DNA from: Alphaproteobacteria bacterium
GTDB lineage: Bacteria; Pseudomonadota; Alphaproteobacteria; JANQMY01
Direction: 5' to 3'
Assembly (NCBI GenBank): GCA_965227095.1
Contig: CBDDFL010000002.1
Location: 3,107-67,106 of the forward strand
DNA: 64,000 nt
The notes under the pieces are model-generated. The model did no database searches. It was not told the origin of the DNA and worked only from the letters and a program-made list of their open reading frames with translations. Below, piece after piece: positions 37,091 through 60,371 of this stretch. The position numbers were made by a program, and so were the translations under genes. Positions within the stretch are counted from its first letter, which is position 1. Every line of letters starts with the position of its first letter.

Positions 37091-37095
37091 GCCAG

Positions 37096-39706: not shown

Positions 39707-39811
39707 CAGGATCCTCCTTACATTCACTTCGAAATATCCCTAGATTACCGCCGTAGCGAGTAAAATGTTCATATATTGATCTTTTTTCAACATGTGTATA
39801 TCAACGTTCGC

Positions 39812-40570: not shown

Positions 40571-40626
40571 TTGACATTATTTAGAAGTCTAAGTTATTAG
40601 GGCCTCAAGCCGGGAGGATACCTTAG

Positions 40627-42105
40627 ATGGAAAATCTGAAACTAGACGCGAAGCTCTCTCTTCAAGAACCAGCCCATCTCTACTACGGCGGCGCATGGGT
40701 GCCGCCACTAGAGGGAAAGTACGAAGACACTTTCAACCCAGGAACCGGCGAGCGGATCGGGTCGGTTGCGACGGCAAGTCGCGCCGATGTCGATGCGGCG
40801 GTTGCGGCAGCGAAAGAAGGGTTCGAGGTATGGCGGGATGTTGTGCCGCTGGAACGCGCACGTATCCTGAAGGAAATCGCAAATCTCTTGCGAAAGCATG
40901 GCGATGAACTGGCGATGATGGACGCTGCAAACTGTGGCAACCCCTATACTGAAATGCGCGGCGACGCCGCGATTGCGGCAGCGCAGATGGAGTTTTTCGC
41001 CGGTCTTGTGACCGAAATGAAGGGTGATACGATCCCTATGGGACCAGAGCGCATCAACATGACCCTACGCCAGCCGATGGGCGTGGTTGCAAGGATTCTT
41101 GCCTTTAATCATCCGTTCATGTTCTGCGGCGGAAAGATGGCAGCGCCTCTGGCCGCAGGCAATGCCGTCATCATCAAGCCGCCGGTTCAGGCTCCGTTGT
41201 CTTCGCTGCGGCTGGCGGAGCTCATCGATGGCCTGCTGCCTAAAGGCACGTTCAATGTTCTGCCGGGCGGCGTCGAGGCAGGAGCTGGGCTGGCCGAACA
41301 TCCCGACGTCGCCAAGGTCACACTCATCGGCTCCGTACCCGCGGGCCGGGCGGTGATGCGCAGCGCGAGCGACACCGTCAAACCAGTGCTGCTCGAACTC
41401 GGCGGCAAGAACGCGCTGATCGCCTATCCGGACAGCGATCCGAAGAAGATCGCCGATGCGATCGTCGGCGGCATGAATTTCGGCTGGTGCGGGCAATCTT
41501 GCGGATCGACGAGCCGCGCTTTCTTGCATGTAGACATCCACGATGCGGTCATCTCACATCTCAAAGCGGCTGTCGAACGGTACAAGCCAGGCATTCCGAC
41601 AGAGCCGGAGACCACGATGGGGGCGATCGTCAGCCGGACACAGTTCGATCGGATCATGGACTTCATCGAATCCGCCATGAGCGAAGGCGCGCGTGCCGTA
41701 ACCGGCGGCCATGCGGTGACCGAAGGTGCGCTGGCACAGGGAAGCTTCATCGCGCCGACGATTTTTGCGGATGTAACGCCGCAGATGCGTATCGCTCGCG
41801 AAGAGATTTTCGGGCCAGTTCTGGCGGTCCGCAAATGGTCGGACGAAGATTCCATGCTGAACGAGGTCAACGCACTTGAGCTGGGGCTGACCTGCGCAAT
41901 TTGGACTCGGGACTTGGTTACGGCTCATCGCACGGCTGCTCGTGTCGAGGCCGGGTTTGTTTGGGTTAACGAAGTTGGCCGGCATTTCCTTGGTGCCCCG
42001 TTCGGTGGGGTCAAACAATCGGGTATCGGGCGCGAAGAAGGTATTGGCGAGCTGATTTCCTTCACCCATGAAAAGAATGTGCATATCAATCTGTCGGGTC
42101 AGTAA
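40627..42105 (+). CDS. Aldehyde dehydrogenase, 2-carboxybenzaldehyde dehydrogenase (PhdK)-like
   Basis: LELGGKN and EEIFGPV; GVVARILAFNHPF and GMNFGWCGQSCGSTSR recall PhdK. Confidence 0.85.
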   Translation: MENLKLDAKLSLQEPAHLYYGGAWVPPLEGKYEDTFNPGTGERIGSVATASRADVDAAVAAAKEGFEVWRDVVPLERARILKEIANLLRKHGDELAMMDAANCGNPYTEMRGDAAIAAAQMEFFAGLVTEMKGDTIPMGPERINMTLRQPMGVVARILAFNHPFMFCGGKMAAPLAAGNAVIIKPPVQAPLSSLRLAELIDGLLPKGTFNVLPGGVEAGAGLAEHPDVAKVTLIGSVPAGRAVMRSASDTVKPVLLELGGKNALIAYPDSDPKKIADAIVGGMNFGWCGQSCGSTSRAFLHVDIHDAVISHLKAAVERYKPGIPTEPETTMGAIVSRTQFDRIMDFIESAMSEGARAVTGGHAVTEGALAQGSFIAPTIFADVTPQMRIAREEIFGPVLAVRKWSDEDSMLNEVNALELGLTCAIWTRDLVTAHRTAARVEAGFVWVNEVGRHFLGAPFGGVKQSGIGREEGIGELISFTHEKNVHINLSGQ

Positions 42106-42231
42106 CCCGGTGCAGAGGTAATGTGCGAACGGGGTCTGGGATCCAAAAGCTTTTTCTTTATTGATTGCTTTGGCCGGGATGAGACCATCCCTTCCTACCC
42201 TTTCTGCAAACCGACAAGGATCTGAAAAATA

Positions 42232-43083
42232 ATGAGCAATGTTGCGAACGTCCCCGATATCATCCTCGAACCTATGGTTCGGAACGCCATTGTGGAGGAC
42301 CTGGGTGCAGCAGGCGACGTGACAACCCGTTCCGTTCTGCCTGAAGGCACGCGCTACAAGGCGCAAATGCGTGCACGGCAGGACGCGGTTGTTTCTGGGA
42401 TGCAGGTGGCCTCTCTGGCGTTTCGGCTGATTGATCCCGATCTTATTGTCGAGACTGTTGTCGCGGATGGTACGGCCTGCAAAACGGGCGATACCTTGAT
42501 GCGTATAGAGGGATCGGCGGCGTCGATCCTTGCCGCAGAGCGTGTTGCCCTGAACTTTGCCGGGCGGTTGTCCGGGACGGCAACTTTGACAGCGTCCTAT
42601 GTGCAGGAACTTGCGGGTACCAAGACACGTATCACCTGTACACGCAAAACCACACCGGGGCTGAAGCTTGTCGAGAAACTCGCGATTTTGCATGGCGGCG
42701 GCCACAATCACCGGTTTTCCCTGTCCGATGCAATCCTGATCAAGGACAACCATATCGCAGCGGCTGGTGGCATCAAACAGGTGTTGGAAGCCGTTCAGCG
42801 AAATGTGGGTCACATGGTCGTGGTCGAGATCGAGATCGACGGTTTGCATCAGTTGGACGAGGTGCTTCAGACCGGGGGCGCAGATGTCATCATGTTTGAC
42901 AATATGTCGACCGAAGACATGGCCGAAGCCGTAAAGCGCATTGACGGGCGGGCGAAGACAGAAGCCAGCGGGAATGTGACCCTTGGCCGTTTGCGCGAAA
43001 TCGCATCGGCAAATGTGGATTATATTTCCTCCGGTGCTTTGACCCATTCGGCGGGGACCGTCGATTTCGGTTTGGATTTCTGA
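42232..43083 (+). CDS. nadC: Quinolinate phosphoribosyltransferase
   Basis: AERVALN, TRKTTPGL, HRFSLSDAILIKDNH, EASGN and GALTHSA motifs. Confidence 0.95.
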   Translation: MSNVANVPDIILEPMVRNAIVEDLGAAGDVTTRSVLPEGTRYKAQMRARQDAVVSGMQVASLAFRLIDPDLIVETVVADGTACKTGDTLMRIEGSAASILAAERVALNFAGRLSGTATLTASYVQELAGTKTRITCTRKTTPGLKLVEKLAILHGGGHNHRFSLSDAILIKDNHIAAAGGIKQVLEAVQRNVGHMVVVEIEIDGLHQLDEVLQTGGADVIMFDNMSTEDMAEAVKRIDGRAKTEASGNVTLGRLREIASANVDYISSGALTHSAGTVDFGLDF

Positions 43084-43118
43084 TCCTCTGAACCGCTCCA
43101 GACCGTCTGAAATGCAAA

Positions 43119-43142
43119 ATGCCCGCCCTTTCGGCGGGCAAT
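43119..43142 (+). terminator. Hairpin after nadC
   Basis: TGCCCGCC-CTTTC-GGCGGGCA. Confidence 0.55.
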
Positions 43143-43215
43143 AAATACCTATTGCGTACGCCTTTCAAAATGGGGCGCTGCTGCATCAACACTTCATAAG
43201 GAAAGGCCAAAACAC

Positions 43216-44985
43216 ATGACAGAGCACAGGCTGTATCAGGTTGAGCGCCCAGTATCGTCGGATAGTTTGGGAGTTTGGGGTAGCGATGTATTTGCGGATA
43301 TGTTGCGAGGTTTGGGGGTGAAGTATGTTGCGCTGAACCCTGGGTCGAGCTTTCGGGGTTTGCATGACAGCCTTGTGAACCACCTTGGTAATGAAGATCC
43401 GCAGATGCTGTTGTGTCTGCACGAAGAGCATGCGGTTGCGATTGCACATGGCTATGCGAAGGTGACGGGGGAGCCATTGGCGGTGATTCTGCACAGCAAC
43501 GTGGGTCTGATGCATGGGACGATGGCGATCTTCAACGCATGGTGTGATCGGGTTCCTGTGCTGATCTATGGTGCGACGGGGCCGGTTGATGCGGCGCTGC
43601 GGCGTCCTTGGATTGACTGGCTCCATACCTGCCGTGACCAGGCGTCGATGATCCGGAATTATGTGAAATGGGACGATCAGCCTGGCTCGATGGAGGCGGC
43701 GCTGGAATCGATGTTGCGTGCGGATGTGATCGCGCGGAGCGAGCCGAAAGGGCCGACCTATGTGAACTTTGATGTGTCGATCCAGGAAAAGCAGCACGCG
43801 CAGGCCCCGGCGCTGCCGGATTTTGCGCGTTACCAGCCGCCTTTGCCTGCGGCTCCTTCGGCCGAAGGCGTGGCACGTGCGGCGGACCTGCTGAAGAACG
43901 CCAAGGCGCCTGTGGTGCTGGCGGGGCGGGTGTCGCGCGATCCGGCGGATTGGGCGCGGCGTGTGGCCTTTGTCGAGGGGCTGGGGGCGAAGGTTCTGAC
44001 GGATATCCGGATCGGGGCGTCTTTCCCGACGGATCACCCGCGGCATCGGGGTAAACCAGCCTTCTTCATCGACGACGCGGCGGGCGCGGTGCTGCGCGAG
44101 GCCGATGTGATCCTGAGTCTGGACTGGCTGGATGTCGCGGGTACGCTGAAACTGGCGGGCGAAGTGACGGCGCAGGTGATCCAGGCGTCGCTGGATTATC
44201 AGCTGCACAATGGCTGGGGGATGGAGCATCAGGCGCTGCCTGCGCTGGATCTGCACCTGGCCTGTGGCCCGGATGTTGCGATGCATGCGATTGCCGATGC
44301 CCTGGGTGTAGGGGCGGGCGAGATGCCCGGTGATTTGCCGGTCAAACCCGCGCTGAACGCCCCCGATGCAGATGTTGAGCTTGATATCATGACGCTGGCC
44401 GGGGCGCTTGGCGAAGGTTTGGAAGGTGTCTGTGCCAGCTTTGTGCGTTGGCCGTTGGGTTGGGCGGGCGAGGCGTGGCACTTCCGTCATCCGCTGGACT
44501 TCCTGGGTTCGGATGGCGGCGCGGGGATCGGCTCGGGTCCTGGGATGCTGATCGGGGCGGCGCTGGCGCTGAAAGACAGCGACCGGCTGCCTGTTGCGGT
44601 TCTTGGGGACGGCGACTTCATGATGGCGGCCTCGGCATTTTGGACGGCGGCGCATTATGGCACTCCGTTCCTGGCGGTGGTGTCGAACAATCGCTCGTTC
44701 TACAATGACGAGGTGCACCAGGAACGCGTGGCAGTGGCCCGCAACCGCCCGGTCGAGAACAAGTGGATCGGCCAGCGTATCGGTGATCCGGATATCGACA
44801 TTGCCGGAGTTGCGCGGGCGCAGGGCTGCGAAGGGATCGGCCCGGTCTTTACCGCGGGCGAGCTGGTCGAGGCGATCAAACAGGGCGTCGAGATGGTGCG
44901 CGCGGGCAAGAGCGTAGTGATCGATGCACGTGTCCAGCCGGGGTATAACCCCAACATGGTCGCTGGCCTGACGCGGAGCGACTGA
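43216..44985 (+). CDS. Thiamine-diphosphate-dependent enzyme (decarboxylase-like)
   Basis: NPGSSFRGLHDS..HEEHAVAIAHGYAK; GDGD..NN ThDP motif. Confidence 0.9.
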   Translation: MTEHRLYQVERPVSSDSLGVWGSDVFADMLRGLGVKYVALNPGSSFRGLHDSLVNHLGNEDPQMLLCLHEEHAVAIAHGYAKVTGEPLAVILHSNVGLMHGTMAIFNAWCDRVPVLIYGATGPVDAALRRPWIDWLHTCRDQASMIRNYVKWDDQPGSMEAALESMLRADVIARSEPKGPTYVNFDVSIQEKQHAQAPALPDFARYQPPLPAAPSAEGVARAADLLKNAKAPVVLAGRVSRDPADWARRVAFVEGLGAKVLTDIRIGASFPTDHPRHRGKPAFFIDDAAGAVLREADVILSLDWLDVAGTLKLAGEVTAQVIQASLDYQLHNGWGMEHQALPALDLHLACGPDVAMHAIADALGVGAGEMPGDLPVKPALNAPDADVELDIMTLAGALGEGLEGVCASFVRWPLGWAGEAWHFRHPLDFLGSDGGAGIGSGPGMLIGAALALKDSDRLPVAVLGDGDFMMAASAFWTAAHYGTPFLAVVSNNRSFYNDEVHQERVAVARNRPVENKWIGQRIGDPDIDIAGVARAQGCEGIGPVFTAGELVEAIKQGVEMVRAGKSVVIDARVQPGYNPNMVAGLTRSD

Positions 44986-46019
44986 TGATGACCCCGAAGA
45001 TCTATATTGCGCAGGATCCTGTGCTGGAAGAGGTGTTGGACACCGCAACGGATCGGCTGCGGGCCGAAGGCTGGGAGGTCGTTCGCGGCCCCCAGATCAC
45101 CCCGGGTGTTCCGCTGCGGCTGACGGAAGAGCAACGGCAGGCGCTGCTGTCGGACGTTGATATCATCGTGGCCAGCTCGCGGTCGCGGCTGAGCGAGGCG
45201 GATCTGGATGCCTCACCACGGCTGCGGGCGCTGGTCTTTCCGACGATCGGGGTGGATGCGGTCGATCTGGAGGCCTGTGCCGCGCGTGGTCTGATCGTGG
45301 CCAATGGTGCAACGCCCGAGAACTTTCTGGCGATGTCAGAGGCGACAGTGATGCTGATGCTGGTGCTGCTGTACCGGCTGCATGAATCCGAACGCCTGCT
45401 ACGCGAAAATGCGGGCCGGCCGCAGCAGATGTATGCGCGGATGGTGCGGGGCCGGACGATCGGCCTGATCGGGTCTGGCCGGATTGGGGCCGGGGTGATC
45501 GAGCGACTGCTGGCGTTCGAGCCGGCACAGATCCTGGTGCACGATCCGTTCCTGACACCTGACACCGCACCCGCGGGCGTACGGTTGGTGGAGCGCGACG
45601 CGCTGCTGACCACGTCCGATGTGGTCAGCCTGCATGTGCCGCTCAACGCGCAGACGCGAGGCATGATTGCCGAGGCGGAACTGCGCGCGATGAAGACAAA
45701 TGCGGTTCTGATCAACACCTCGCGCGGGGGTCTCATTGACGAGGATGCGCTGGTGCGGGTGATGACAGCAGGACACCTGGCCGGTGCGGGGCTGGACGTG
45801 ACGGAAACCGAACCGCTGCCCGCCGACCACCCGCTGCGCGGCCTCGACCGGGTGATCCTCACCCCGCATATCCTGGGCCACACCATTGATCTCTACACGG
45901 TCATGCCCGACGTCCTCGTCGAAAACGCAACACGCATCATGAAAGGTGATCTGCCGACATATGTCAGGAACCCCGATGTGGTGGAACGCTGGCGACAAAA
46001 GTTGAACGATCTGAACTGA
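44985..46019 (+). CDS. D-2-hydroxyacid dehydrogenase family protein
   Basis: GSGRIG, SLHVPL, INTSRG, LDV..EP and TPHI motifs. Confidence 0.9.
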   Translation: MMTPKIYIAQDPVLEEVLDTATDRLRAEGWEVVRGPQITPGVPLRLTEEQRQALLSDVDIIVASSRSRLSEADLDASPRLRALVFPTIGVDAVDLEACAARGLIVANGATPENFLAMSEATVMLMLVLLYRLHESERLLRENAGRPQQMYARMVRGRTIGLIGSGRIGAGVIERLLAFEPAQILVHDPFLTPDTAPAGVRLVERDALLTTSDVVSLHVPLNAQTRGMIAEAELRAMKTNAVLINTSRGGLIDEDALVRVMTAGHLAGAGLDVTETEPLPADHPLRGLDRVILTPHILGHTIDLYTVMPDVLVENATRIMKGDLPTYVRNPDVVERWRQKLNDLN

Positions 46020-46405
46020 CCAACCCCTCCGCGCGAACGGTGTGCACAGCCGAACTGCAGAGCCTATGTTCCTTGCACCTATTGAATGGCCGTGAACCGC
46101 GCCGGGTTTGCCGGAGGCGTTACACAACGGTTGCCCGGCGCTGTGCGGCACAGTGGTGCAAGGCAGGTGTCGGCGCATGATGGTCGCGTACTGGAAAGCA
46201 ACCGGCGCACAATCCCGACACAGGGGCAAAACCACCCCGGAAGAAAGTCCATACTCGGGCCCAACGATAGGCACCCCGGCTTCCATGTCTTGACTTTGTA
46301 CCAAGGCTCGGCACCTATGTTGCGCGCGCCACAACTCTGGAGTTCTTAGCTATCAAGTCCGGGCGGGCGCGCTGTTTGGATAAAAACCATGTGTGGAGAC
46401 AGGCC

Positions 46406-46933
46406 GTGAGCGATGCGATGAAAGAAAAGCAATCAAGCCACGTACCTGTCCAACCCGACGAGCGCATGGCCCGGCTGGTACGACTGGCGGCCCGCGGGTT
46501 CAACCGGGCGCTTCAACTTCGACTGCAAACGGAAAATGTTACGTTCGGTCAGTGGATTTTCCTGCGCATCCTCTGGCAGGAAGACGGGTTGTCGCAACGC
46601 GAACTGAGCGACCGGGCGCATCTCACCGAACCCACCGCCCACACCGCGCTCATCAAAATGGAAGAATTGGGTTTCATAGAGCGACGCAACGTCGAGGGCA
46701 ACAAACGGCGCCAGCACGCGTTTCTGACGCGGAAGGGCTTGGAGCTGCGCGACGTTCTCGAACCTCTGGCGCTCGAAGTGAACGATGCAGCGATGGCGGG
46801 ACTGTCCAAGAAAGCTCAGGAAGACTTGCGACACGCACTTGCCGTGATGATCCGGAACCTCGAAAATGACGAACAGGATGCGGCCGCCAGAGGGGTCCGT
46901 GTTCCCCCGACCAAGGGCAACACAGCAAACTGA
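46406..46933 (+). CDS. MarR family regulator
   Basis: QWIFLRILWQEDGLSQREL..EPT..GFIERR..FLT; start approximate. Confidence 0.88.
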   Translation: MSDAMKEKQSSHVPVQPDERMARLVRLAARGFNRALQLRLQTENVTFGQWIFLRILWQEDGLSQRELSDRAHLTEPTAHTALIKMEELGFIERRNVEGNKRRQHAFLTRKGLELRDVLEPLALEVNDAAMAGLSKKAQEDLRHALAVMIRNLENDEQDAAARGVRVPPTKGNTAN

Positions 46934-47243
46934 ATCGCGAGCCATGCGTGCCGAGGGTCCGGCGCGGGCCATTCAATGGCGGTGGCGGACATAGAGAGCC
47001 TATGGGGGCGGGGGTTTGAGGCCTGCTGCTCCGGGGCTCCACGGGTTGATAGTGCGTCACGACAAAGCACCTACGCCGGACACACGGCTTCGGCGTGTTC
47101 CGCGTCAGGAACTATGACCTGAGTGGCTTTCGCTGAACAATAATCTCGACTTCAATCAGGGTTGACGGGTGCGAGTGGATAGACTATTGGCATTAAAGAT
47201 AGATATCTAATATTAGATGTCTACTGAAAACAGGGAGGAAGAC

Positions 47244-48233
47244 ATGAAATTTCCAATCAAAGCCGTTGCCGCATCGATCGGCCTTGCGGTTCTTGCGAGC
47301 GCTGCTTCCGCAGAAAGCGTTAATGTGACCCTTTCAGGCGGCAATCCCTCGGGGCTTTGGTCGCTTCTGGGCGCTGGTATTGACCGTGCCGTCAAGGCGG
47401 ATGACCCGAGCGGCGTGGTGACCTATCAGGCCACCGGGGGTGGCTTTGCGAACATCGGCCTTCTGGGCCGTGAACGGACCGACCTGGGGATGGCACATGA
47501 TGCCGAGATCAAGCTGGCCCTCGCAGGGGACGAACCGTTTGACGCGCCGATCGAGAACCTTCAAGCCATCGGCTACATGTACAACTGGGCGCCGATGCAC
47601 TTCTTCATCAAGAAGTCTCTTGCCGAAGAATATGGCATCGACAGCATTGACGACCTCGCGACGTCCGGCGCGGCGATCCGTGTTGCGAACAACAATGCCG
47701 GGAACATCGTCGCCAACATCACGACCTTCATGCTCGAAGAGGCGGGCTACGACGAAGCCACGATCGAGTCCAATGGCGGCGTGCTTGTCCGCGGTGGTTC
47801 GTCACAGCAAGCAGATCTGATTGCAGACGGCCGCACCGATATGGTGATCAACGGCATTTTCATCGGACATTCGTCGTTCCGTAAAGTTGACGAGGGCAAT
47901 GACGTCGTGTTGCTCAGCGTTCCCGAAAACATCATCGCTGCGACCAACGAGCGTTTCGGAACCGGCACGTTCACAATTCCAGCCGACAGCTACAAGAACC
48001 AGACCGAAGATGTCGTCACGCTCGCACTGGGTGCGATGGTAATCACTTCCGATGTACTGCCGGAAGAAACTGGCTACATGCTCGCAAAGAGCATCGCGTC
48101 CAATATCGACGAGATCCGCGGCGTGCATAAGGCGATGCAGGCGCTCACACCGGAACTTCTGACGTCGCAGACCACGCTGCCGTTCCATCCTGGTGCGGAG
48201 CGTGCCTACAAGGAACTGGGTCTGCTCAAGTAA
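47244..48233 (+). CDS. TAXI-family TRAP solute-binding protein
   Basis: Signal peptide; GGNPSG; TGGG..N; PFHPGAERAYKELG C-terminus. Confidence 0.9.
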   Translation: MKFPIKAVAASIGLAVLASAASAESVNVTLSGGNPSGLWSLLGAGIDRAVKADDPSGVVTYQATGGGFANIGLLGRERTDLGMAHDAEIKLALAGDEPFDAPIENLQAIGYMYNWAPMHFFIKKSLAEEYGIDSIDDLATSGAAIRVANNNAGNIVANITTFMLEEAGYDEATIESNGGVLVRGGSSQQADLIADGRTDMVINGIFIGHSSFRKVDEGNDVVLLSVPENIIAATNERFGTGTFTIPADSYKNQTEDVVTLALGAMVITSDVLPEETGYMLAKSIASNIDEIRGVHKAMQALTPELLTSQTTLPFHPGAERAYKELGLLK

Positions 48234-48250
48234 GGTCGATCCCGCGATCC

Positions 48251-48283
48251 GGCCGGCGCGCGCTGCAACGACACGCGCCGGCC
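48251..48283 (+). other. Intercistronic stem-loop
   Basis: GGCCGGCGCG..CGCGCCGGCC between the binding-protein and permease genes. Confidence 0.5.
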
Positions 48284-48399
48284 CACTCATGGACTGCACA
48301 GAGCAATGCCCCGCGGTGGCTACGTGAGATGTCACGTCATGTCATCGCGCGGCCCATACATCGCGGTTCTTTCTCTTCTCTGCCTTATACGGGGTCTAC

Positions 48400-50304: not shown

Positions 50305-50504
50305 CTGTGGCGCCTCAGCAGGTTGACCCGATTGAAGCGCAGTCTGGTCATCGAGGGATTCAACCCAGAGACGGCATGTGGCCTGGGCCAATTTTTAAGG
50401 TTGGTCCGGGCCGGTCGGCCTATGACGCGGAACACAGGCGGCTACTTCCATAGGTGGGAGCTGATCACTTCGCAACCGGCGCAAAGTATTTCGAGGTTCA
50501 GGAA

Positions 50505-51080: not shown

Positions 51081-51391
51081 AGCGAGATGGTTCGCTTGCC
51101 GCGACTTATGCACAGGCTGGCTGCCATGACACCTCAGAGACGGGCCCGGCAAGCCGCTGTCGGGGAGGTTCCGGACCACAATTGCGCGAAAGTATCTCGG
51201 TTTTGCGATCTCGTCAGCTTGATCTAGTTCAGAACCCGCTATTTCGGACAACAAGTTAGGTCGATACCTACAACGCGGGAAAAAAAAGTGGCAGGTTACG
51301 TTGACAGATAAAACTTAGAGAGCTAAGAATAGTTGAGAGGTCGAAAACCACTCATCCACTGAAAGAGTCGGATGCCATTGGAGGAGCCCAG

Positions 51392-52672: not shown

Positions 52673-52694
52673 CTTGCGCACATGTTTCCTCCCT

Positions 52695-52736
52695 GAACCG
52701 TCCAAGGCCTCAAGGGGTTTTGGGCGGCTCTTTTTT
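52695..52736 (+). terminator. Rho-independent terminator
   Basis: CCGTCCAAGGCC..GGTTTTGGGCGG followed by a T-run. Confidence 0.6.
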
Positions 52737-52799
52737 CGTGGTGCCGTCGGACTTTCATAGCTTCCCTCGACGGATTCTGCTCGGCGGGCGACAGGCGTT

Positions 52800-53942
52800 A
52801 TGACGACAGCAATCAATATCGAAGACTTGCGGGCGCAGGCACGGCGTCGCCTGCCACGGGTGGTGTTCGATTATTTGGATGGGGGCGCGGAATCGGAGGT
52901 GACGCTGCGGCACAATCGCAGTTCCTTCACGAATATCGTTCTCACGCCGCGAATCCTCAAAGGGGGGAGCGTCGATCTCACCTTGGAGCTGTTCGGGGAA
53001 ACATACTCGAAGCCGTTTTTCATAGGGCCGACAGGGCTGAACGGCCTCTACTGGCCCCAGGGAGATCTGCACCTCGCCGCTGCGGCCGAACGAGCCGGGG
53101 TCGGGTTCACGGTTTCGACCGCCTCGAACACGACGCTGGAAGAGATCGCGCGGAGGAGCAAGGGTCCCCTCTGGTTCCAGCTTTATCCGTGGGGGAAGGG
53201 CGCATTCGCTGATGCGCTGATCGACCGGGCACAGGCGGCCGGTTACTCGGCTCTGGTACTGACTGTCGATTCACTCGTGGGCGGCAAGCGCGAACGTGAT
53301 CTGCGGCACGGCTTCGCCCACGAAATCCGCATTGGCCCTCGGACTGTTCTCGATGGGCTTCTGCATCCTGCTTGGCTGACCTCCGTATGGCTCGGGCCGC
53401 ACCGTCCCAGACTTGAGAACCTCTTGGACTTTGTCGGAAACAGCGCGAGCGACAGAGAACTGGCCGAGTTTACCCGATCTCAGCGGAACCCGGAGTTTTC
53501 TTGGGGAGATGTTCGCCGCATTCGGGAGAAATGGAAAGGCCCGCTGCTGATCAAGGGTATCATGTGCCCAGAAGATGCGATTGACGCGCAACGCGCCGGT
53601 GTGGATGGAATCGTCGTCTCGAACCATGGTGGCCGTCAGCTTGATGGCGCTCCTGCCACCATCGACGTACTCGCAGATATCATCGCGGCTCTTGATCGGA
53701 AGTTTCCGGTTCTGCTGGACGGCGGCATTCGTCGCGGCAGTGACATCGTGAAAGCCCTCGCCTTGGGTGCGAAGGGCATTCTGCTGGGTCGCGCGCCGCT
53801 CTATGGCTTGGCGGCGCAAGGCGAGGCGGGCGTGTCACGGGCGCTTTCGATCCTTGAAGAGGAGATGACGAGGACCATGACCTTTGTGGGCGCAAGATCC
53901 GTGTCTGCGGTCTCTGATTTCAACGTCGAAATTCGACGGTAA
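52800..53942 (+). CDS. FMN-dependent alpha-hydroxy-acid oxidase/dehydrogenase (MdlB/LldD family)
   Basis: FDYLDGGAE, WFQLY, SNHGGRQLD and DGGIRRGSDIVKALALGA motifs. Confidence 0.92.
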   Translation: MTTAINIEDLRAQARRRLPRVVFDYLDGGAESEVTLRHNRSSFTNIVLTPRILKGGSVDLTLELFGETYSKPFFIGPTGLNGLYWPQGDLHLAAAAERAGVGFTVSTASNTTLEEIARRSKGPLWFQLYPWGKGAFADALIDRAQAAGYSALVLTVDSLVGGKRERDLRHGFAHEIRIGPRTVLDGLLHPAWLTSVWLGPHRPRLENLLDFVGNSASDRELAEFTRSQRNPEFSWGDVRRIREKWKGPLLIKGIMCPEDAIDAQRAGVDGIVVSNHGGRQLDGAPATIDVLADIIAALDRKFPVLLDGGIRRGSDIVKALALGAKGILLGRAPLYGLAAQGEAGVSRALSILEEEMTRTMTFVGARSVSAVSDFNVEIRR

Positions 53943-54071
53943 TAAATGGTTCCTCCGCCAGTAGCGCTTGCACGATCAACGTTTTGGATGACTGCGTAGT
54001 TCAAGGTCGGTTGACACACATAACTTAGCTATCTAAACAAATTCACAATCACGACCATATGGGAGGACCTC

Positions 54072-55010
54072 ATGGAGAATATCAAGATGCGCGTCGAGAA
54101 ACGGCGTGACTTGACCCCGAGCATCGCCGAATTCACCCTGGTGCCGGTTGGGGCCGATGTGCTCCCTAGTTTCGATCCTGGTGCTCACATCACCTTGGAA
54201 ACTCCGTCCGGAGCGATGCGTCGCTATTCACTGATCAACGATGGCAGCGACCCAAAGGAATTTGTTGTCGCGATCAAAAGAGAACCGAATTCGCGTGGGG
54301 GCTCCGCGTCGATGCACGAACAGGCGACCGTCGGGTCCGAGTTGACAGTCGAATTCCCGGAAAACGATTTCCCGCTAACCGATGTTCAGAAGTACCTGCT
54401 CATCGCCGGCGGTATCGGGATCACGCCGATTCTGTCGATGGCACGGTATCTCGACAAGAAGGGCAAGATGCTCAGAATCATCTACGTCAGCCGCAGTCCG
54501 GAGGAATCGGCCTATCTGGATGAACTGATGAGAGATTTCGATGGCCGGATCATTGTGCACCATGACGGCGGCGCTCCGGATGCAGTCTACGATTTCTGGG
54601 ACGATCTCGTCACGCCCCGTGCCACTCACGTCTTCTGTTGTGGTCCGAAACCGCTGATGGATGAAATCAAGGCCGTTTCCGGGCACTGGCCGGAGGGGCG
54701 AGTTCACTTCGAGGATTTCAAGCCCGTCGATGTGGTGCGCCAAGACGATGTCTCTTTCGAAGTGGAGCTGAAAAAAAGTAGCGAAACCGTCACGGTGCCC
54801 GAAGATCGTTCGATCTTGGAGGCATTGCGTGACGCCGGATTCGCAACGTCCAGCTCCTGTGAAAGTGGCACATGCGGCACCTGCAAGATCCGCCTCCTCG
54901 AAGGGGAAGCTGACCATCGCGACATGGTGCTTATGGAAGAGGAAAAAAGCGACCATATAATGATTTGTGTATCGCGCGCGCTATCGGGGAGGCTGGTTCT
55001 TGACCTCTGA
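54072..55010 (+). CDS. ophA1: Phthalate dioxygenase reductase (PDR/VanB family)
   Basis: RRYSL, AGGIGITP, CGP and CESGTCGTC..ICVSRA motifs. Confidence 0.9.
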   Translation: MENIKMRVEKRRDLTPSIAEFTLVPVGADVLPSFDPGAHITLETPSGAMRRYSLINDGSDPKEFVVAIKREPNSRGGSASMHEQATVGSELTVEFPENDFPLTDVQKYLLIAGGIGITPILSMARYLDKKGKMLRIIYVSRSPEESAYLDELMRDFDGRIIVHHDGGAPDAVYDFWDDLVTPRATHVFCCGPKPLMDEIKAVSGHWPEGRVHFEDFKPVDVVRQDDVSFEVELKKSSETVTVPEDRSILEALRDAGFATSSSCESGTCGTCKIRLLEGEADHRDMVLMEEEKSDHIMICVSRALSGRLVLDL

Positions 55011-56187
55011 TCCCGTCCGCCTCGGAGTTGCGGGATTGGGGCGGGCTTTCATGCTGATGGTCCCCACCTTTGATGCCGACGCACGCGTCAAGCTCACGGC
55101 CGCGGCCGCGCCGAGGGCGGAAAGCCGGGCCGCATTCGAAGAGCAATACGGCGGTGTCGCCTATCCGACTGTCGAGGAACTATGCGCCGATCCATCTGTG
55201 GAAGCGATCTACATCGCCACCCCGCACCAAATGCATGTAGATCACGTTCTGGCCGCGGCGCGCGCTGGAAAGCACATTCTCGTGGAAAAGCCGCTCGCGA
55301 TCTCGATGGAAGACGCCGAGACCATGGTCGCCGCCGCGAACGAGGCGGGGGTTCACCTGATCGTTGGGCCCAGCCACAGTTTCGATCCGCCGGTCGAGCT
55401 GGCCGCGCAGTTGATCGCGAGCGGCAAGTTCGGCCAGCTGAGAATGATCCAGGCCCTTAACTACACTGACTTCCTGTATCGTCCCCGACGCCCGGAGGAG
55501 CTGCGCACCGAAGAAGGAGGAGGGGTGCTGTTCAGCCAGGCCATCCACCAGATCGACGTGGTCCGACGGCTTGCGGGCGGCATGGGAGAGAAGATTTATG
55601 CCATGACCGGGGCATGGGATCCAAAGCGTCCAACAGAAGGCGCCTTTACGGCGCTGATGAACTTTGAGGGTGGATGCGTCGCCAATCTCACCTATTCGGG
55701 CTATGCCCATTTCGATAGCGACATTTGGATGAACGACGTCGGAGAGCTGGGGCAGCGAAAACTCGCCGGCGCCTATGGCGATGCAAGGCGGGCGCTGATG
55801 GACCTCGATCCCGATGACGAGGCGCGCCTCAAGACGACGCGCACATTCGGCAGCGGTAAGACGGTCGACGCAAAGCACAACGAGCATTTTGGCCCAGTCA
55901 TCGCGCTTTGCGACCGTGCCGACCTAAAGCTGACTCCGGACGGAGTTGAAGTATTTGGTGACACCGAGCGTGGCTTCATCGAAGTGACATTCGGGCCCGC
56001 GCCACGTAGAACCGTGAACGATGCACTGGTAGCCGCTGTCCGCCAGAACAAGGCCCCCGTCCAGACGGGCGCGTGGGGTCTGGCAAGCCTGGAGGTTTGC
56101 CATGCGATCCTGCAGTCCGCCTCGACCGGCCAACCTGTCGACCTGCGGCAACAATGCAAAACAAATGAGGAGGAACAAACTGGATGA
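55000..56187 (+). CDS. ophB: cis-phthalate dihydrodiol dehydrogenase (Gfo/Idh/MocA)
   Basis: GLGRAF, EKP, GPSHSFD and NYTDFLYRPRRPEEL motifs. Confidence 0.88.
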   Translation: MTSDPVRLGVAGLGRAFMLMVPTFDADARVKLTAAAAPRAESRAAFEEQYGGVAYPTVEELCADPSVEAIYIATPHQMHVDHVLAAARAGKHILVEKPLAISMEDAETMVAAANEAGVHLIVGPSHSFDPPVELAAQLIASGKFGQLRMIQALNYTDFLYRPRRPEELRTEEGGGVLFSQAIHQIDVVRRLAGGMGEKIYAMTGAWDPKRPTEGAFTALMNFEGGCVANLTYSGYAHFDSDIWMNDVGELGQRKLAGAYGDARRALMDLDPDDEARLKTTRTFGSGKTVDAKHNEHFGPVIALCDRADLKLTPDGVEVFGDTERGFIEVTFGPAPRRTVNDALVAAVRQNKAPVQTGAWGLASLEVCHAILQSASTGQPVDLRQQCKTNEEEQTG

Positions 56188-57176
56188 GCAATCTCAAACT
56201 ATCCCTTGCCATGGGAAATTATGACCGGACGCGTGCCATTGTGGATGGAAGAGTGCAGATAGACGGTGTCGATCCCGTGCCCATGCTACTGTCCCCAGAG
56301 GAAATGTTCTTCCGGGCATTCCGCCACGAAGCTTTCGATATCAGCGAAATTTCGTTGTCCTCCTATTCGATCTCGGTCGCCCGCGGAAATCCGCACTATG
56401 TCGCGATCCCGGTCTTTCTGAGCCGGGCATTCCGTCACACTTCAGTCTACATTCGAACCGACAAAGGGATCGACACGCCGCAGGATCTAAAGGGCAAGCG
56501 CATTGGCATCGCCGAATACCAGCTGTCCGCCAATGTCTGGGTGCGCGGCATTCTCGAAGAGGAATACGGTGTCAAACCCTCCGACATCATCTGGGTGCGC
56601 GGCGGTATGGATACGCCGGGCCGGCCCGAAAAGATCAAGGTTCAGTTACCCGACAATATCCGCATGGAAGAGGCGCCAGTTGGCAGCACGCTGAATGGCA
56701 TGCTCGAGGCCGGTGAGATCGACGGCTTCGTCGGCCCGCGTTGGCCGCGTTGTTTCGCCGAGCGGCATCCGCACGTAGGTCGGCTCTTTGCAGACAGCAT
56801 CGCTACGGCCGAAGCCTATTTCGAAAAGACACGGATCTTTCCGATCATGCATGTCCTTGGGGTGCGCCGCAGCCTCGCAGAAGAATACCCGTTCCTACCC
56901 GCCGCCCTGCTCAAGGCGTTCACGCAATCGAAGCTGTTGGCAGAAGAAGCTCTGTCTGACACCTCGGCAACGAAAGTAACGATGCCCTTCGTCGAGGATA
57001 ATCTCAACCGCGTGCATGCGCTAATGGGTGACGACCCATGGAGCTATGGCGTCGGCGGCAACGCCCATGTCCTGAACAAGTTTTTGGATTACCACGCGAG
57101 TCAGGGTCTGTCCCCGCGCCGAGTGGAGATCGAAGAACTGTTCCATCCCTCGACCCTAGAAGCCTACAGCCTTTAA
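56184..57176 (+). CDS. ophC: 4,5-dihydroxyphthalate decarboxylase
   Basis: LSLAMGNYDRT, PEEMFFRAF, PVFLSRAFRH and FPIMH motifs. Confidence 0.9.
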   Translation: MSNLKLSLAMGNYDRTRAIVDGRVQIDGVDPVPMLLSPEEMFFRAFRHEAFDISEISLSSYSISVARGNPHYVAIPVFLSRAFRHTSVYIRTDKGIDTPQDLKGKRIGIAEYQLSANVWVRGILEEEYGVKPSDIIWVRGGMDTPGRPEKIKVQLPDNIRMEEAPVGSTLNGMLEAGEIDGFVGPRWPRCFAERHPHVGRLFADSIATAEAYFEKTRIFPIMHVLGVRRSLAEEYPFLPAALLKAFTQSKLLAEEALSDTSATKVTMPFVEDNLNRVHALMGDDPWSYGVGGNAHVLNKFLDYHASQGLSPRRVEIEELFHPSTLEAYSL

Positions 57177-57189
57177 GAGGAGCGCCACA

Positions 57190-57633
57190 ATGGAAGAGTA
57201 CGCACCCGGAGATATCGTCGAGGTCGAAACACCGAAGGGGTTGGCTTACGTGCAGCTCACCCATACCCACCCGAGCTATCCTCCCGTGGTCAAGTTCCTC
57301 CCGGGGCCTTACGAGCACCGGCCCGACAATGTGACTGTATTGGCCGAAAAACCCGCACCGATGGCCATGGTACCCTTAACAGGGGCATTGAATCGGTTAG
57401 GGTTGAAGCACGCGCTTGCCGGAAGGTCGGACATTCCGCATTCGGAAAGAAGTTTCCCGATTTTCCGGATGCCGATTCGCGACAAGCAAGGCGAGATCAT
57501 CTATTGGTGGTTCTGGGACGGCCAAGGGTTGACCTATTCTACCGAGCTGATGGAGCAGCAGGAGACGCTGCCAATGCGCGAGGTTATATCCTCAGACCAC
57601 TTCCTGGATCAGTTGCTGGCCCATGACAAGTAG
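57190..57633 (+). CDS. Hypothetical protein (Imm26-like N-terminus)
   Basis: GGAG RBS; PGDIVEVETPKGLAYVQ..YWWFWDG. Confidence 0.65.
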   Translation: MEEYAPGDIVEVETPKGLAYVQLTHTHPSYPPVVKFLPGPYEHRPDNVTVLAEKPAPMAMVPLTGALNRLGLKHALAGRSDIPHSERSFPIFRMPIRDKQGEIIYWWFWDGQGLTYSTELMEQQETLPMREVISSDHFLDQLLAHDK

Positions 57634-57660
57634 CAGGTACAATCCGCGCCGACACGCGCG

Positions 57661-58596
57661 ATGACTGCGGGGTTCGGCGGCCTCTTGGCCGCGTTCGGAG
57701 CGTTCTGCTACGCCTTGAGTTCGGTTTCCATTGCCAAGAGTTCCCAATCGGTTCAAGGCCGCGGCAACGACGTTCTTATCTCTGTGCTGATGACCGCCTT
57801 TGTCTCAGGGGCGCTTTGGCTGCTCCTGGGTCCAACGATGCCGGAACTTGGACTCGGTGTGCTCATTGGTGTGGCCTATTTCGTTGCAGCAGGGGTGCTT
57901 GGTAACGTTCTCGGCCGTCTCACGCTGTTTCGCTCCGTAGAGCTTGCCGGAGCCATCGAAACCGGATTCATCCGACGCCTGATACCTGTGTTTGCGGCGC
58001 TGTTGGCGTTTTTTTTTCTGGGTGAGGTCATTACGATACCAGTGGTCATCGCCTTCTTCCTGGTTACCAGCGGCGTGGTAATCATGATGTCACGCGCTTC
58101 GGTCAAATCGGCTTCTGACTTGGCGGTCGGAGATCCCGACCCTCAAGAGAGGAACAAGGGCCGCGCGATGGCCGTAGCGTCCGCCGCCGGGTATGGCGGC
58201 TCTTTTGTCTCCCGAAAGCTCGCCATGCAGACTTTGCCTGACCCTCTGGCCGGCGTGTTCATCGGTGCGATGACGGGCCTAATGTGGTTCGCGGTCTCCT
58301 GGGTGTTCCGGTTCAAATCGCGCAACGCGTTGTCCTGGCGAATTCAGCGGCCGAGCGGGTGGCAACTGCTGGCTGGCAGTTCGATGACCGTTGGGCAAGT
58401 GGCGCTGTTCTTTTCGCTTATGTTCACTGATGTGACCGTCGTCGCGATCATGTCTTCGATCGAGATGTTCTTTGCCGCCTGGCTCGCAGGCCACATCTTC
58501 AAAACCGAACGGCGCCCGGGTCCCAGATTCTACCTGTCGTCTGCACTAGCCGCGACCGGTGTGACACTTCTCGCCCTTGCGCCAAGGTTTGGTTAG
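57661..58596 (+). CDS. DMT/EamA family transporter
   Basis: Two 5-TM repeats; LAFFFLGEVIT. Confidence 0.85.
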   Translation: MTAGFGGLLAAFGAFCYALSSVSIAKSSQSVQGRGNDVLISVLMTAFVSGALWLLLGPTMPELGLGVLIGVAYFVAAGVLGNVLGRLTLFRSVELAGAIETGFIRRLIPVFAALLAFFFLGEVITIPVVIAFFLVTSGVVIMMSRASVKSASDLAVGDPDPQERNKGRAMAVASAAGYGGSFVSRKLAMQTLPDPLAGVFIGAMTGLMWFAVSWVFRFKSRNALSWRIQRPSGWQLLAGSSMTVGQVALFFSLMFTDVTVVAIMSSIEMFFAAWLAGHIFKTERRPGPRFYLSSALAATGVTLLALAPRFG

Positions 58597-59045
58597 TGGG
58601 ACTGGCAACACGCAATTGCGAGATTGTCCAGCAGCTTGTCCATCGCAGCGAAAAGGTGACCCAACTCGTCGGGTTCAAATCCCGCCGAGGCGTGATCTGC
58701 CGCGAGACGCGCAGATTTCATTGCGCCATCTATCGTTCGAAGGCCTGCGTCAGTCAGGTCGACATGAACCACGCGCCGGTCGGACTGGCTGCGGTTACGC
58801 GTGATAAGATCTCGCTTTTCGAGCTCGTCCAGGACGCGTGTGGACGACGCCTTTTCGATGCCCAACAACCCGGAAAGCTCGGATTGTTTTAGCTTGCCTT
58901 CCTCTCTCAGGCACCGGAGATGAATGTACTGCGCCATGCTGAGCCCGGTTTCGCGCAACTGCTCCTGCAGCAGCTTACCATAAAGATGATGCGCCAGGCG
59001 GAGCGACGCCCCAAGACCACGTTTCTTGGAAGGTGATTGCGGCAC
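58593..59045 (-). CDS. MarR family regulator
   Basis: LKQSELS..IEKASSTRVLDELE..DRRVVHVDLT. Confidence 0.9.
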   Translation of the reverse strand: MPQSPSKKRGLGASLRLAHHLYGKLLQEQLRETGLSMAQYIHLRCLREEGKLKQSELSGLLGIEKASSTRVLDELEKRDLITRNRSQSDRRVVHVDLTDAGLRTIDGAMKSARLAADHASAGFEPDELGHLFAAMDKLLDNLAIACCQSH

Positions 59046-59159
59046 GACTTGCGCCCCCTAATTTAGATGTCTTATTTCTTGACAATTCTAAAGCTGTTCT
59101 TATAGTAAGGCAATCTTACTAACTTGAAGCAAGACTGGGCAACAGACGGAGGAGCTAAG

Positions 59160-59525
59160 ATGCCAGAAAGATTGCTATGCGCGGTGTCGGACTTGAGCGA
59201 CAAGACGGCAAAAATTTGCGAGGTCGACGGGATCGAGATCGGGGTCATTCGGCACAAAGGAGACATCGTTGCATATAAGAACGTGTGTCCGCACCAGGGC
59301 GGGCCGGTATGCGAAGGCCTAAAGATGCCGCAGGTCTGCGTCGAACTCGACGACCAGCAGCGCACGCTCCGGCAGACCTTCAACGAAGACGAACTGCATT
59401 TCGTTTGCCCGTGGCATGGCTGGGAATTCAAGATTGCGACGGGCGAAGCGGTCGGCGATCCGAAATACAAAATGAAACGCTACAACGTGGTGGAGAGAGG
59501 GGGTGAGGTCTATGTCGAAATTTGA
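59160..59525 (+). CDS. Rieske [2Fe-2S] ferredoxin
   Basis: CPHQGGPVC...CPWHGWEF. Confidence 0.9.
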   Translation: MPERLLCAVSDLSDKTAKICEVDGIEIGVIRHKGDIVAYKNVCPHQGGPVCEGLKMPQVCVELDDQQRTLRQTFNEDELHFVCPWHGWEFKIATGEAVGDPKYKMKRYNVVERGGEVYVEI

Positions 59526-59811
59526 TCAAATAGCCACTGAAGCTCCTGCTCTGGACGCATCGCTCGATGCTGTCCTGAATGCACTTCGCAACCCCGAAAG
59601 CAGTGGCCTGCGCGCCGAGCAACTTCAGGCGCTGCTTTCACACGCTGTGACTGCATATGCAAAACTTCGCGAAACCAATGACGGCTTGCCCGCATTCCCA
59701 CGAGACAACGATGTCTCGGCGACAGCTGTCGCCATCGCCGCGACCGGCATTCTCGATGCCGCCGATATGGCGGTGTTCGAGTTGGGCATGTGGCAGACAC
59801 TAAATCCGTAA
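59512..59811 (+). CDS. Hypothetical protein
   Basis: Overlaps the ferredoxin stop; C-terminal FELGMWQ. Confidence 0.7.
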   Translation: MSKFDQIATEAPALDASLDAVLNALRNPESSGLRAEQLQALLSHAVTAYAKLRETNDGLPAFPRDNDVSATAVAIAATGILDAADMAVFELGMWQTLNP

Positions 59812-59831
59812 CACGAGGGGAGAGAGATAAA

Positions 59832-60371
59832 ATGTCATTAACGGGCAACACGATGAACTACAGTTCGGATAACGATCCGGCGATCCAGGAATTTAATACC
59901 AGCAAGCTGCTGAAGAACGCACGTAAGCAAGCGGAAGATCGCAACTACAAAGACTTCTTCATTTGCGATGTGGACAGCCACCACTATGAGACTGAGGCCT
60001 TGCCGGAAATCCTGCAGTACATGGACGACCCAGTGATGCGCCATCTTGGCTTGTCAGCCGGTAACGTTGGTCGAGCCGGCCTTATTCCGCAGGCGATCGG
60101 TTCGCAGGACATGGCTGGGCGCGTGACGCGCTATGCGGGTCGGGACAAAGAAATTGTCCCCGAAGAGCCGCACCGCGACATCACTTTGGCCCGGCGCTGG
60201 ATGGACGCGATGGGTACGGATATGGCGTGCCTTTTCCCAACCCCAATGCTGCTGTTGGCGACGCACCCCCAAGTCGAGGTCGAGGTGGCAATGGCCCGCG
60301 CCTATAACCGTTGGCTGAGCGAGCGCATTCTTGAAGAAGACAATCGCCTCGTATCCATGGTTGTCGCGTAG
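59832..60371 (+). pseudogene. Amidohydrolase_2 family protein, interrupted by a transposon at 60362
   Basis: CDVDSHHYE, MDAMGTD..LFPT and ARAYNRWL, then sequence switches to the transposon end. Confidence 0.85.

Follow-up and report, generated by a model that had tools for sequence, protein, structure and literature searches.

The DNA analyzed here, 64 kb of contig CBDDFL010000002.1 from an Alphaproteobacteria bacterium (hereafter the window), carries a continuous catabolic island, delineated from the open reading frame (ORF) listing and from Pfam and NCBIfam scans. A complete gene set for the phthalate 4,5-dioxygenase pathway (PDO-type oxygenase, reductase, dihydrodiol dehydrogenase and decarboxylase) is accompanied there by genes for a thiamine diphosphate (ThDP) enzyme resembling benzoylformate decarboxylase (BFDC), an aldehyde dehydrogenase (ALDH), a D-isomer-specific 2-hydroxyacid dehydrogenase (D2HADH) and a flavin mononucleotide (FMN)-dependent L-2-hydroxyacid dehydrogenase. 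We propose that these enzymes form a funnel, like the mandelate pathway in its logic and lying within the phthalate regulon, that would lead from 2-carboxymandelate through phthalonate and 2-formylbenzoate to phthalate. We give the proposal about an even chance of being right, and every substrate named in it is one that we infer. An earlier note on this DNA, made from the letters alone, had placed four extra enzyme genes among ophA2, ophA1, ophB and ophC; the ORF listing, Pfam and NCBIfam bear out their starts, coordinates and families, but the list overlooked nadC (42232-43083), which lies inside the ALDH-ThDP operon.

How would such a funnel work? The ALDH-nadC-ThDP-D2HADH operon and the FMN enzyme gene, set inside the oph genes, would act as one system. 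The D-specific NAD enzyme and the L-specific FMN enzyme would oxidize both enantiomers of an ortho-carboxylated 2-hydroxy acid, for which 2-carboxymandelate is the best candidate, and the product would be the 2-oxo acid phthalonate (2-oxalobenzoate). The BFDC-like ThDP enzyme would decarboxylate phthalonate to 2-formylbenzoate, the ALDH would oxidize 2-formylbenzoate to phthalate, and OphA2A1, OphB and OphC would convert phthalate to protocatechuate, the substrate of the neighboring pca pathway. The additional NadC would protect NAD synthesis. If the ALDH oxidizes 2-formylbenzoate and the ThDP enzyme feeds the ALDH, then phthalonate follows as the ThDP substrate, being the only 2-oxo acid that gives 2-formylbenzoate by simple decarboxylation. 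The features that bear on the proposal are as follows, in window coordinates.

40571..40592, + strand: promoter-like TTGACA, then operator palindrome TTAGAAGTCTAA, 35 nt 5' of the ALDH start codon
40627..42105, + strand: ALDH, candidate 2-formylbenzoate (2-carboxybenzaldehyde) dehydrogenase; Pfam Aldedh, 478 bits
42232..43083, + strand: extra nadC (quinolinate phosphoribosyltransferase), OphE/PhtD-like helper; TIGR00078, 308 bits against a cut-off of 198
43216..44985, + strand: BFDC-like ThDP enzyme, candidate phthalonate (2-oxalobenzoate) decarboxylase; Pfam TPP_enzyme_N/M/C
44985..46019, + strand: D2HADH; Pfam 2-Hacid_dh(_C)
46376..46933, + strand: MarR-family regulator, candidate palindrome-binding repressor; Pfam
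51301..51326, + strand: TTGACA and operator TTAGAGAGCTAA, 66 nt 5' of ophA2
51392..52672, + strand: ophA2, phthalate 4,5-dioxygenase oxygenase component; Rieske and LigXa_C domains
52698..52727, + strand: terminator-like hairpin with a T-run, 3' of ophA2
52800..53942, + strand: FMN-dependent L-2-hydroxyacid dehydrogenase, membrane-associated MdlB/LldD type; Pfam FMN_dh, 446 bits
54011..54036, + strand: TTGACA and operator TTAGCTATCTAA, 36 nt 5' of ophA1
54072..57176, + strand: ophA1 (reductase, 54072-55010), ophB (dihydrodiol dehydrogenase, 54967-56187) and ophC (4,5-dihydroxyphthalate decarboxylase, 56184-57176); Pfam

A shared operator

The window holds the palindrome TTAG-N4-CTAA three times and no more, where 0.13 sites would be expected; none of 100 shuffles reached three. 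TTGACA stands just 5' of each site, and the sites lie 35-66 nt ahead of ALDH, ophA2 and ophA1. In what follows, L0xx labels denote fetched loci, G000 is the genome that holds the window, and percent identities are relative to the window genes. The operator of the ALDH operon is kept in L001-L004, L007, L009, L011 and L013-L015. The 1.58 Mb of fetched loci hold 43 exact sites, 39 of which are found 14-113 nt 5' of an ALDH, ophA2, ophA1, ophB or TAXI homolog, and exact sites extend to the distant loci L021, L023, L034 and L039 and to the clusters of Thalassospira (L081) and Marinibacterium (L083). When one mismatch is tolerated, sites also appear ahead of the ThDP gene (TTGACA-N5-TTAGATATCGAA) and the ALDH gene in Thalassospira, and in Marinibacterium all five sites in 25 kb lie ahead of cluster promoters, namely those of the 'o-phthalyl amidase' gene, TAXI (two sites), dctP-phdK and pht3/ophA1. 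The Marinibacterium ThDP gene, automatically annotated mdlC, is the last of a co-oriented run of ophA1, pht4, pht5, a hypothetical gene and a DMT gene. A search with a fixed-spacing promoter pattern returned only an unrelated site. Since the palindrome is shared ahead of ALDH, ThDP and oph genes, we count both the ALDH operon and the ThDP gene as members of the phthalate regulon in three lineages.

Which protein might read the operator? The whole funnel is probably under a repressor of the MarR type that acts at TTAG-N4-CTAA, a regulator-operator pairing that we infer; orthologs of the MarR protein encoded at 46376-46933, 59-60% identical, are present in the Thalassospira and Marinibacterium clusters. 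As a separate observation, the one-mismatch copy in Marinibacterium anthonyi pLA6_006 lies 71 nt 5' of the gene annotated as o-phthalyl amidase (L083 1257-2767), which suggests a further feeder into the oph regulon.

Public sequencing runs also contain this DNA. Positions 40500-46100 are contained in 20 runs, 11 of them recorded as RNA, from seven studies in all. Among the four runs examined, contigs bridge pcaR-ALDH-nadC-ThDP-D2HADH (run X1, 39767-46440) and ophA2-FMN_dh-ophA1 (runs X1, X2 and X10); such contigs from RNA libraries attest to presence in the libraries, and not to single transcripts, expression levels, a ranking of genes or transcript starts. In the one pure-culture run, which comes from a single study and which we do not use as evidence, contig starts fall at 40617 and 54044 and a contig end at 52679.

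Gene neighborhoods of the ThDP relatives

Is the grouping of these genes found beyond the window? A scan of one genome per species yielded 77 loci with ThDP relatives, and their neighbors were scored by tblastn and Pfam. The 13 loci in which the ThDP enzyme is at least 74% identical have D2HADH in 12 cases, ALDH in 10, FMN_dh in eight and ophA2 in eight; ophA2 orthologs (86-93% identity) are found elsewhere in four more of the 13 close genomes, so that in the window clade the ThDP module shares its genome with ophA2 in 12 of 13 cases. The 59 more distant loci include 18 with ALDH (12 of them at 55% identity or more), 11 with FMN_dh, nine with D2HADH and four with ophA2, and 34 have at least one of ALDH, FMN_dh and D2HADH. 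For scale, G000 has ten ALDH, one FMN_dh and six D2HADH matches in 4.84 Mb, which gives a naive chance per random 21.7-kb stretch of about 4.5%, 0.45% and 2.7%, respectively. The two dehydrogenase classes have unrelated folds and are found in different ThDP subclades. Matches that looked OphC-like at 35-45% identity were dropped, as they are NMT1-family binding proteins beside ABC permeases.

ThDP relatives accompany ophA2 in the distant lineages L021, L023, L034 and L039 and on the Thalassospira and Marinibacterium plasmids, and in L021 and L023 the order ophA2-ophC-ThDP is on one strand. ALDH-ThDP pairs are carried by pCAR3 and by Acidovorax pACP3.2, the latter with an FMN_dh gene that is 53% identical. 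Co-occurrence with oph clusters, on which the earlier note had staked its idea, is thus present in eight of the 13 close loci, in four distant lineages and on two plasmids, those of Thalassospira and Marinibacterium. The operator and the synteny together support the logic of that idea, in which a hydroxy acid passes by way of a keto acid and an aldehyde to an acid and the sequence is tied to phthalate catabolism; 2-carboxymandelate and phthalonate are candidate substrates, proposed from enzyme families and context.

Enzymes of the proposed route

The ThDP enzyme has the TPP_enzyme_N/M/C fold, and all 16 family members compared share residues G464, D465, G466, N491, N492 and E70. E70 aligns with Glu47, the cofactor-activating residue of BFDC; the catalytic residues of BFDC include His70, Ser26 and His281. 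H93 aligns with His70, and all 73 of 73 sequences have His there. The counterpart of Ser26 is S44; at this position 28 of the 73 sequences have Ser, among them every member of the window clade, and 45 have Ala. No NCBIfam cut-off is reached, the best model being NF006203 at 225.7 bits against 456. When a profile of the 16-member family is compared with solved structures, BFDCs come first (139-134 bits), followed by acetolactate synthase (114) and benzaldehyde lyase (94). The enzyme plausibly works like BFDC, though it is not an MdlC ortholog. As to the gene in relatives, that of Acidovorax carolinensis pACP3.2 (L079 7116-8923) has the ALDH gene on one side and a gene for a TctC receptor on the other; its annotation as two adjacent ORFs may reflect a frameshift.

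The closest solved relatives of the ALDH are betaine aldehyde dehydrogenases, which says little about function. A tree built from 39 ALDHs of the loci and of G000 groups the window ALDH with that of Massilia WG5 (FastTree support 0.87). The Massilia gene belongs to a polycyclic aromatic hydrocarbon (PAH) cluster, where it comes after a gene of the dihydrodipicolinate synthase family and one for a cupin, an order that may be read as phdJ-phdI-phdK. In the same tree the grouping with the Thalassospira and L034 ALDHs is looser (support 0.68), and the joining of the Acidovorax ALDH to that group is unsupported (0.08). The ALDH of the Thalassospira cluster is 51% identical to the window enzyme, and a relative at 77% identity is automatically annotated phdK in the GenBank record of Marinibacterium L083. 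We regard the window ALDH as a candidate for the PhdK function, the oxidation of 2-formylbenzoate.

The D2HADH start codon overlaps the ThDP stop codon as TGATG. The protein scores 181 bits with Pfam 2-Hacid_dh_C and reaches no specific NCBIfam equivalog; its best matches are phosphoglycerate dehydrogenase (PGDH) and glyoxylate reductases. The FMN enzyme is encoded by the sole FMN_dh gene of the genome. It can be aligned along its whole length with (S)-mandelate dehydrogenase MdlB (6bfg), and the motif GPTGLNG is identical. The alignment takes in an inserted stretch that is presumably the internal membrane segment of MdlB, and the enzyme has Gly at the equivalent of MdlB position 81. Its scores are 321 bits to MdlB 6bfg (phmmer), 345 with an LldD subfamily model (cut-off 376) and 318 with an LldD model (cut-off 550), the phmmer and NCBIfam figures coming from different methods that are not directly comparable. 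The MdlB-family label proposed earlier for the gene at 52800 stands as regards the FMN_dh domain and the end-to-end alignment, but the enzyme is about as close to the LldD models.

The downstream part of the route is better anchored. OphA2 matches phthalate dioxygenase PDO-KF1 over its full length (581 bits; PDB 7FJL/7V25/7V28) and in the alignment keeps the equivalents of Arg207 and Arg244, described in published work on PDO-KF1 as its substrate-positioning residues; phthalate is therefore its likely substrate. The ophA1, ophB and ophC genes are 69-86% identical to L083 genes annotated ophA1, pht4 and pht5. The pca pathway that the earlier note had seen beside the oph genes is indeed there and complete, with pcaB, G, H, C and D and pcaF, I and J all over NCBIfam cut-offs, and pcaQ and pcaR were identified as well. 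The NadC enzyme is inhibited by phthalate. The island copy is a true nadC in a phthalate cluster, and the genome has a second copy on contig C1 (51% identity to the island gene), as befits an accessory nadC of the OphE/PhtD type. In strain DBO1 a nadC-type gene is described as boosting growth on phthalate while being dispensable for phthalate metabolism (PMC6051330, citing Chang and Zylstra 1999).

Evidence against the funnel and alternative explanations

Several observations weigh against the proposed funnel. The terminator-like hairpin lies between ophA2 and the FMN gene, no operator precedes the FMN gene, and the FMN enzyme could simply be an L-lactate dehydrogenase, because it is the sole FMN_dh protein of the genome and falls just under the LldD subfamily cut-off. 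The ThDP enzyme scores 128.7 bits with the BFDC model NF005485 against a cut-off of 493, and so is not an MdlC ortholog. The equivalent of BFDC His281 is Thr (window T310, by profile alignment); Thr fills this column in 47 of 73 sequences, and His is absent from the five commonest residues listed. The loci are kin by descent and by transfer, so that the counts given above overstate the number of independent events. Within 10 kb, L021 and L023 have neither ALDH nor a 2-hydroxyacid dehydrogenase. The L012 genome, with a ThDP enzyme at 74%, has only a 34% ophA2 homolog, and pairs of ThDP (49-53%) and ALDH (59-64%) genes occur in three genomes with no ophA2 homolog at E<=1e-20. Other ThDP subclades adjoin class II aldolase-family (PhtC-like), Amidohydro_2, UbiD and Mo-hydroxylase genes.

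Because of the ThDP-ALDH pairs in ophA2-less genomes and the case of L012, we take the ThDP family to be broader than phthalate and to handle more than one carboxylated aromatic acid. Might the window enzymes themselves, by the same logic, act on some other aryl or ring-substituted 2-hydroxy or 2-oxo acid, such as a hydroxylated phthalonate or another ortho-substituted phenylglyoxylate? The product would then reach protocatechuate by a side entry, or only partly via phthalate. The distant ophA2-less pairs speak for this possibility, as does the Jiella locus L025, with ThDP, ALDH and an OphC homolog (58%) and no ophA2 homolog found in the genome. So too does the placing of ThDP relatives beside TctC receptor genes and the PhtC-like, Amidohydro_2 and UbiD genes; the last three families include aromatic-acid decarboxylases. 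Substituted phthalonates are, moreover, described as arising from a sea-urchin naphthoquinone pigment (PMC7587531). We nevertheless consider this explanation unlikely for the window itself, where the module is under the oph operator, includes nadC, a helper known from phthalate clusters, and in its clade travels with ophA2 in 12 of 13 genomes.

The missing His281 equivalent invites a different question: is the ThDP enzyme a decarboxylase at all? It might instead cleave a 2-hydroxyketone or 1,2-diketone, as a lyase or hydrolase comparable to benzaldehyde lyase or cyclohexane-1,2-dione hydrolase, and so free an aldehyde from an oxidized bicyclic compound, with D2HADH making the diketone. Benzaldehyde lyase is also a detectable relative, at 94 bits, and some ThDP-ALDH pairs lie beside PAH or ring-hydroxylating dioxygenase clusters. 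BFDC scores clearly above benzaldehyde lyase, however, and the repeated pairing of the ThDP gene with 2-hydroxyacid dehydrogenases of two unrelated families is a better fit to a 2-oxo acid, so that we rate a lyase or hydrolase as improbable.

Starting compound and transport

The 2-carboxymandelate funnel needs a source. The earlier note had suggested homophthalate, imported by the TAXI-TRAP transporter, and neither half of the suggestion found support: no candidate alpha-hydroxylase is present, and the transporter genes travel with oph genes, under the same operator, in L081 and L083, where no 2-hydroxyacid dehydrogenase was detected. Because the transporter accompanies oph genes in such clusters, a ligand of the phthalate or 2-formylbenzoate type is the simpler reading. 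A natural source of phthalonate-type compounds is plausible, for example the autoxidation of echinochrome A, a sea-urchin naphthoquinone pigment, which is described as yielding first a derivative of phthalonic acid and then one of 2-formylbenzoic acid (PMC7587531). An origin from isoquinoline is left as speculation: a Mo-hydroxylase gene adjoins the ThDP gene only in L053, L069 and L070, G000 has no close HyuAB and no racemase-like homolog, and the literature on isoquinoline degradation added nothing.

Relatives of the window carry an insertion at this locus. In L005 (1986-9966 region), L006, L010 (1909-9966) and L008 (660-9004), the ThDP gene is separated from nadC, or from an IclR gene, by some 8 kb that are absent from the window. 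The insert encodes a caprolactamase-like HyuA/HyuB pair (519 bits with the CapA model, under its cut-off), DctQM and DctP TRAP components, and a two-cysteine racemase/isomerase-like protein whose best solved match is maleate isomerase; it looks like an extra upstream module. For the gene 5' of ThDP in L008 and L010, arylmalonate decarboxylase was ruled out by the two cysteines and the maleate isomerase match.

Origin of the island and neighboring genes

The window is part of a 1.49-Mb replicon. Over bases 40627-46019, identity is 100% to plasmid pTPRO7 of Salipiger profundus and 98.6-98.7% to eight plasmids from Phaeobacter. Over the longer interval 21927-60361 the match to pTPRO7 is 98.0%; there follow a 3.7-kb deletion and then a transposon. 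No ThDP match at E<=1e-100 was found in the three congeners (the GTDB family and order comprise four genomes each, too few for searches at those ranks to be informative). With 98-100% identity to plasmids of other genera and congeners without such a ThDP match, the island is therefore, to judge from these comparisons, a recent horizontal acquisition, and its movement between marine genera at such identity means that the trait spreads.

The 3.7-kb deletion directly abuts the TniA/B/Q module and, relative to pTPRO7, took out genes for a universal stress protein (USP), a LysR regulator and a 3-hydroxyacyl-CoA dehydrogenase. Because of it the Amidohydro_2 gene, whose product has 412 aa in pTPRO7, is cut short in the window. 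The position 60371, at which the earlier note had ended the system, is a real ORF end, but that of this truncated remnant, which had not been recognized as such.

A mosaic, transposon-flanked island could also collect genes with no part in a funnel. The extra genes might be passengers or helpers, comprising an L-lactate dehydrogenase, a glyoxylate/hydroxypyruvate-type reductase and an acetolactate-synthase-like enzyme, or else spare copies that offset inhibition by phthalate, for which nadC is a precedent. The nearness of the FMN enzyme to LldD models and the best matches of D2HADH to PGDH and glyoxylate reductases fit such an account. We give it little credence, as the operator sits at the promoter of the ALDH operon, the ThDP stop and D2HADH start overlap, the ThDP gene is repeatedly associated with ALDH and hydroxyacid dehydrogenases in distant lineages, and the ThDP enzyme is far from housekeeping ThDP models, with all NCBIfam scores well under their cut-offs. 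The remaining features of the island are listed here.

32468..39727, - strand: pcaB, G, H, C, D; pcaQ (+ strand); pcaF, J, I; beta-ketoadipate pathway; NCBIfam equivalog cut-offs exceeded
39776..40570, + strand: PcaR/PcaU/PobR-type IclR regulator, immediately 5' of the ALDH operon; TIGR02431, 314 bits against a cut-off of 285
43120..43140, no strand assigned: G+C-rich hairpin in the nadC/ThDP gap, at the site of the 8-kb insert in relatives
47217..50304, + strand: TAXI solute-binding protein and fused TRAP permease; TIGR02122 and TIGR02123 above cut-off
50454..51080, + strand: 208-aa hypothetical protein between the TRAP permease and ophA2
57190..58596, + strand: 147-aa conserved hypothetical protein and EamA/DMT permease
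58593..59045, - strand: second MarR regulator, divergent to the small Rieske gene; Pfam
59124..60371, + strand: small Rieske protein, hypothetical protein and truncated Amidohydro_2 gene
60358-63813: TniA (Mu-type transposase), TniB and TniQ module

The 208-aa protein (50454-51080) has no family match and is kept, at 82-93% identity, in close relatives only; its hydrophobic C-terminal stretches may be read as two membrane helices. The 147-aa protein (57190-57633), encoded 3' of ophC, also follows ophC in Marinibacterium (57%), Thalassospira (43%) and L034 (43%); it matched no Pfam family, and a protein atlas gave only a weak Imm26-like lead. Small Rieske and Amidohydro_2 genes recur beside ThDP relatives in the Defluviicoccus-like metagenome-assembled genomes L066, L068, L071, L072, L075 and L078, most of which also have FMN_dh and UbiD genes; L030 has an Amidohydro_2 homolog only. 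In the left half of the window (1-32000), the pTPRO7 annotation in part places LLM oxidoreductase, SDR, MFS and SOD genes, among others.

Relation to known systems

Phthalate is a hub for the breakdown of plasticizers and PAHs, and its known feeders are esters and the 2-formylbenzoate that comes from phenanthrene. If the funnel is real, a co-regulated set of decarboxylase and dehydrogenases would bring a new class of feeder compounds to this hub, a large uncharacterized ThDP family would gain its first function, and genes overlooked in the published description of a Thalassospira cluster would be accounted for. The regulon, with its candidate MarR-type operator at three promoters, might also be used for biosensors or pathway engineering. 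A wider proposal, to which we allow somewhat less than an even chance, is that a widespread BFDC-like ThDP family related to NF006203 includes phthalonate decarboxylase and, with PhdK-like ALDHs and interchangeable D- and L-2-hydroxyacid dehydrogenases, forms a regulated mobile entry route into phthalate catabolism in Alpha- and Betaproteobacteria. Its substrates would be ortho-carboxyaryl C2 acids from oxidized naphthoquinones, PAHs or N-heterocycles, and relatives would extend the route with an ATP-dependent lactamase-like pair, the two-cysteine racemase-like protein and a TRAP transporter of their own.

How much of this was known? Our literature search found no biological paper on phthalonate, 2-carboxymandelate, homophthalate or their synonyms, and none joining benzoylformate decarboxylase with 2-carboxybenzaldehyde and phthalate. 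The earlier note's belief that the route had not been described genetically thus agrees with the literature found, but it must be qualified, as a paper of 2022 describes a putative phdK-pht cluster (PMC9604089) and relatives already bear the automatic labels phdK and mdlC in the Marinibacterium GenBank record. The phthalate pathway, nadC and the phdK-pht idea are already known; what we did not find in print is the funnel of a ThDP enzyme and two dehydrogenases, with the operator that joins it to the oph genes.

One of the closest known systems is that of Thalassospira GO-4, which is reported to grow on 2-carboxybenzaldehyde, to form phthalate dihydrodiol and 4,5-dihydroxyphthalate, and to have a putative 'phdK-pht' cluster with TRAP and MarR genes (PMC9604089). 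Like the window, this cluster brings together ALDH, ophA2/A1/B/C, TAXI-TRAP and MarR genes, and the version on a Thalassospira lucentensis plasmid also has a ThDP gene (59% identical) and nadC; unlike the window, it has no D2HADH or FMN dehydrogenase. PMC9604089 mentions neither the ThDP gene nor nadC, and the word 'thiamine' occurs there 0 times. The Thalassospira ALDH is reported to be 40.6% similar to PhdK of Nocardioides sp. KP7, where phdK is located with phdI and phdJ and not with pht genes (PMC9604089). KP7 PhdK, a 2-carboxybenzaldehyde dehydrogenase, catalyzes the very reaction proposed for the window ALDH. The oph genes of Burkholderia cepacia DBO1, with ophE/nadC, and the PDO-KF1 system of Comamonas testosteroni represent the same phthalate 4,5-dioxygenase route with its accessory quinolinate phosphoribosyltransferase; to our knowledge, neither cluster has a ThDP enzyme, an ALDH or a 2-hydroxyacid dehydrogenase. 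For the funnel itself the model is the mandelate pathway of Pseudomonas putida (MdlB, MdlC, MdlD), in which the chemistry has the same order, from FMN dehydrogenase to ThDP decarboxylase to ALDH, and BFDC is the best solved relative of the window ThDP enzyme. The window differs in having D2HADH in place of a racemase; its genes are part of the regulon marked by the phthalate operator, and nadC accompanies them.

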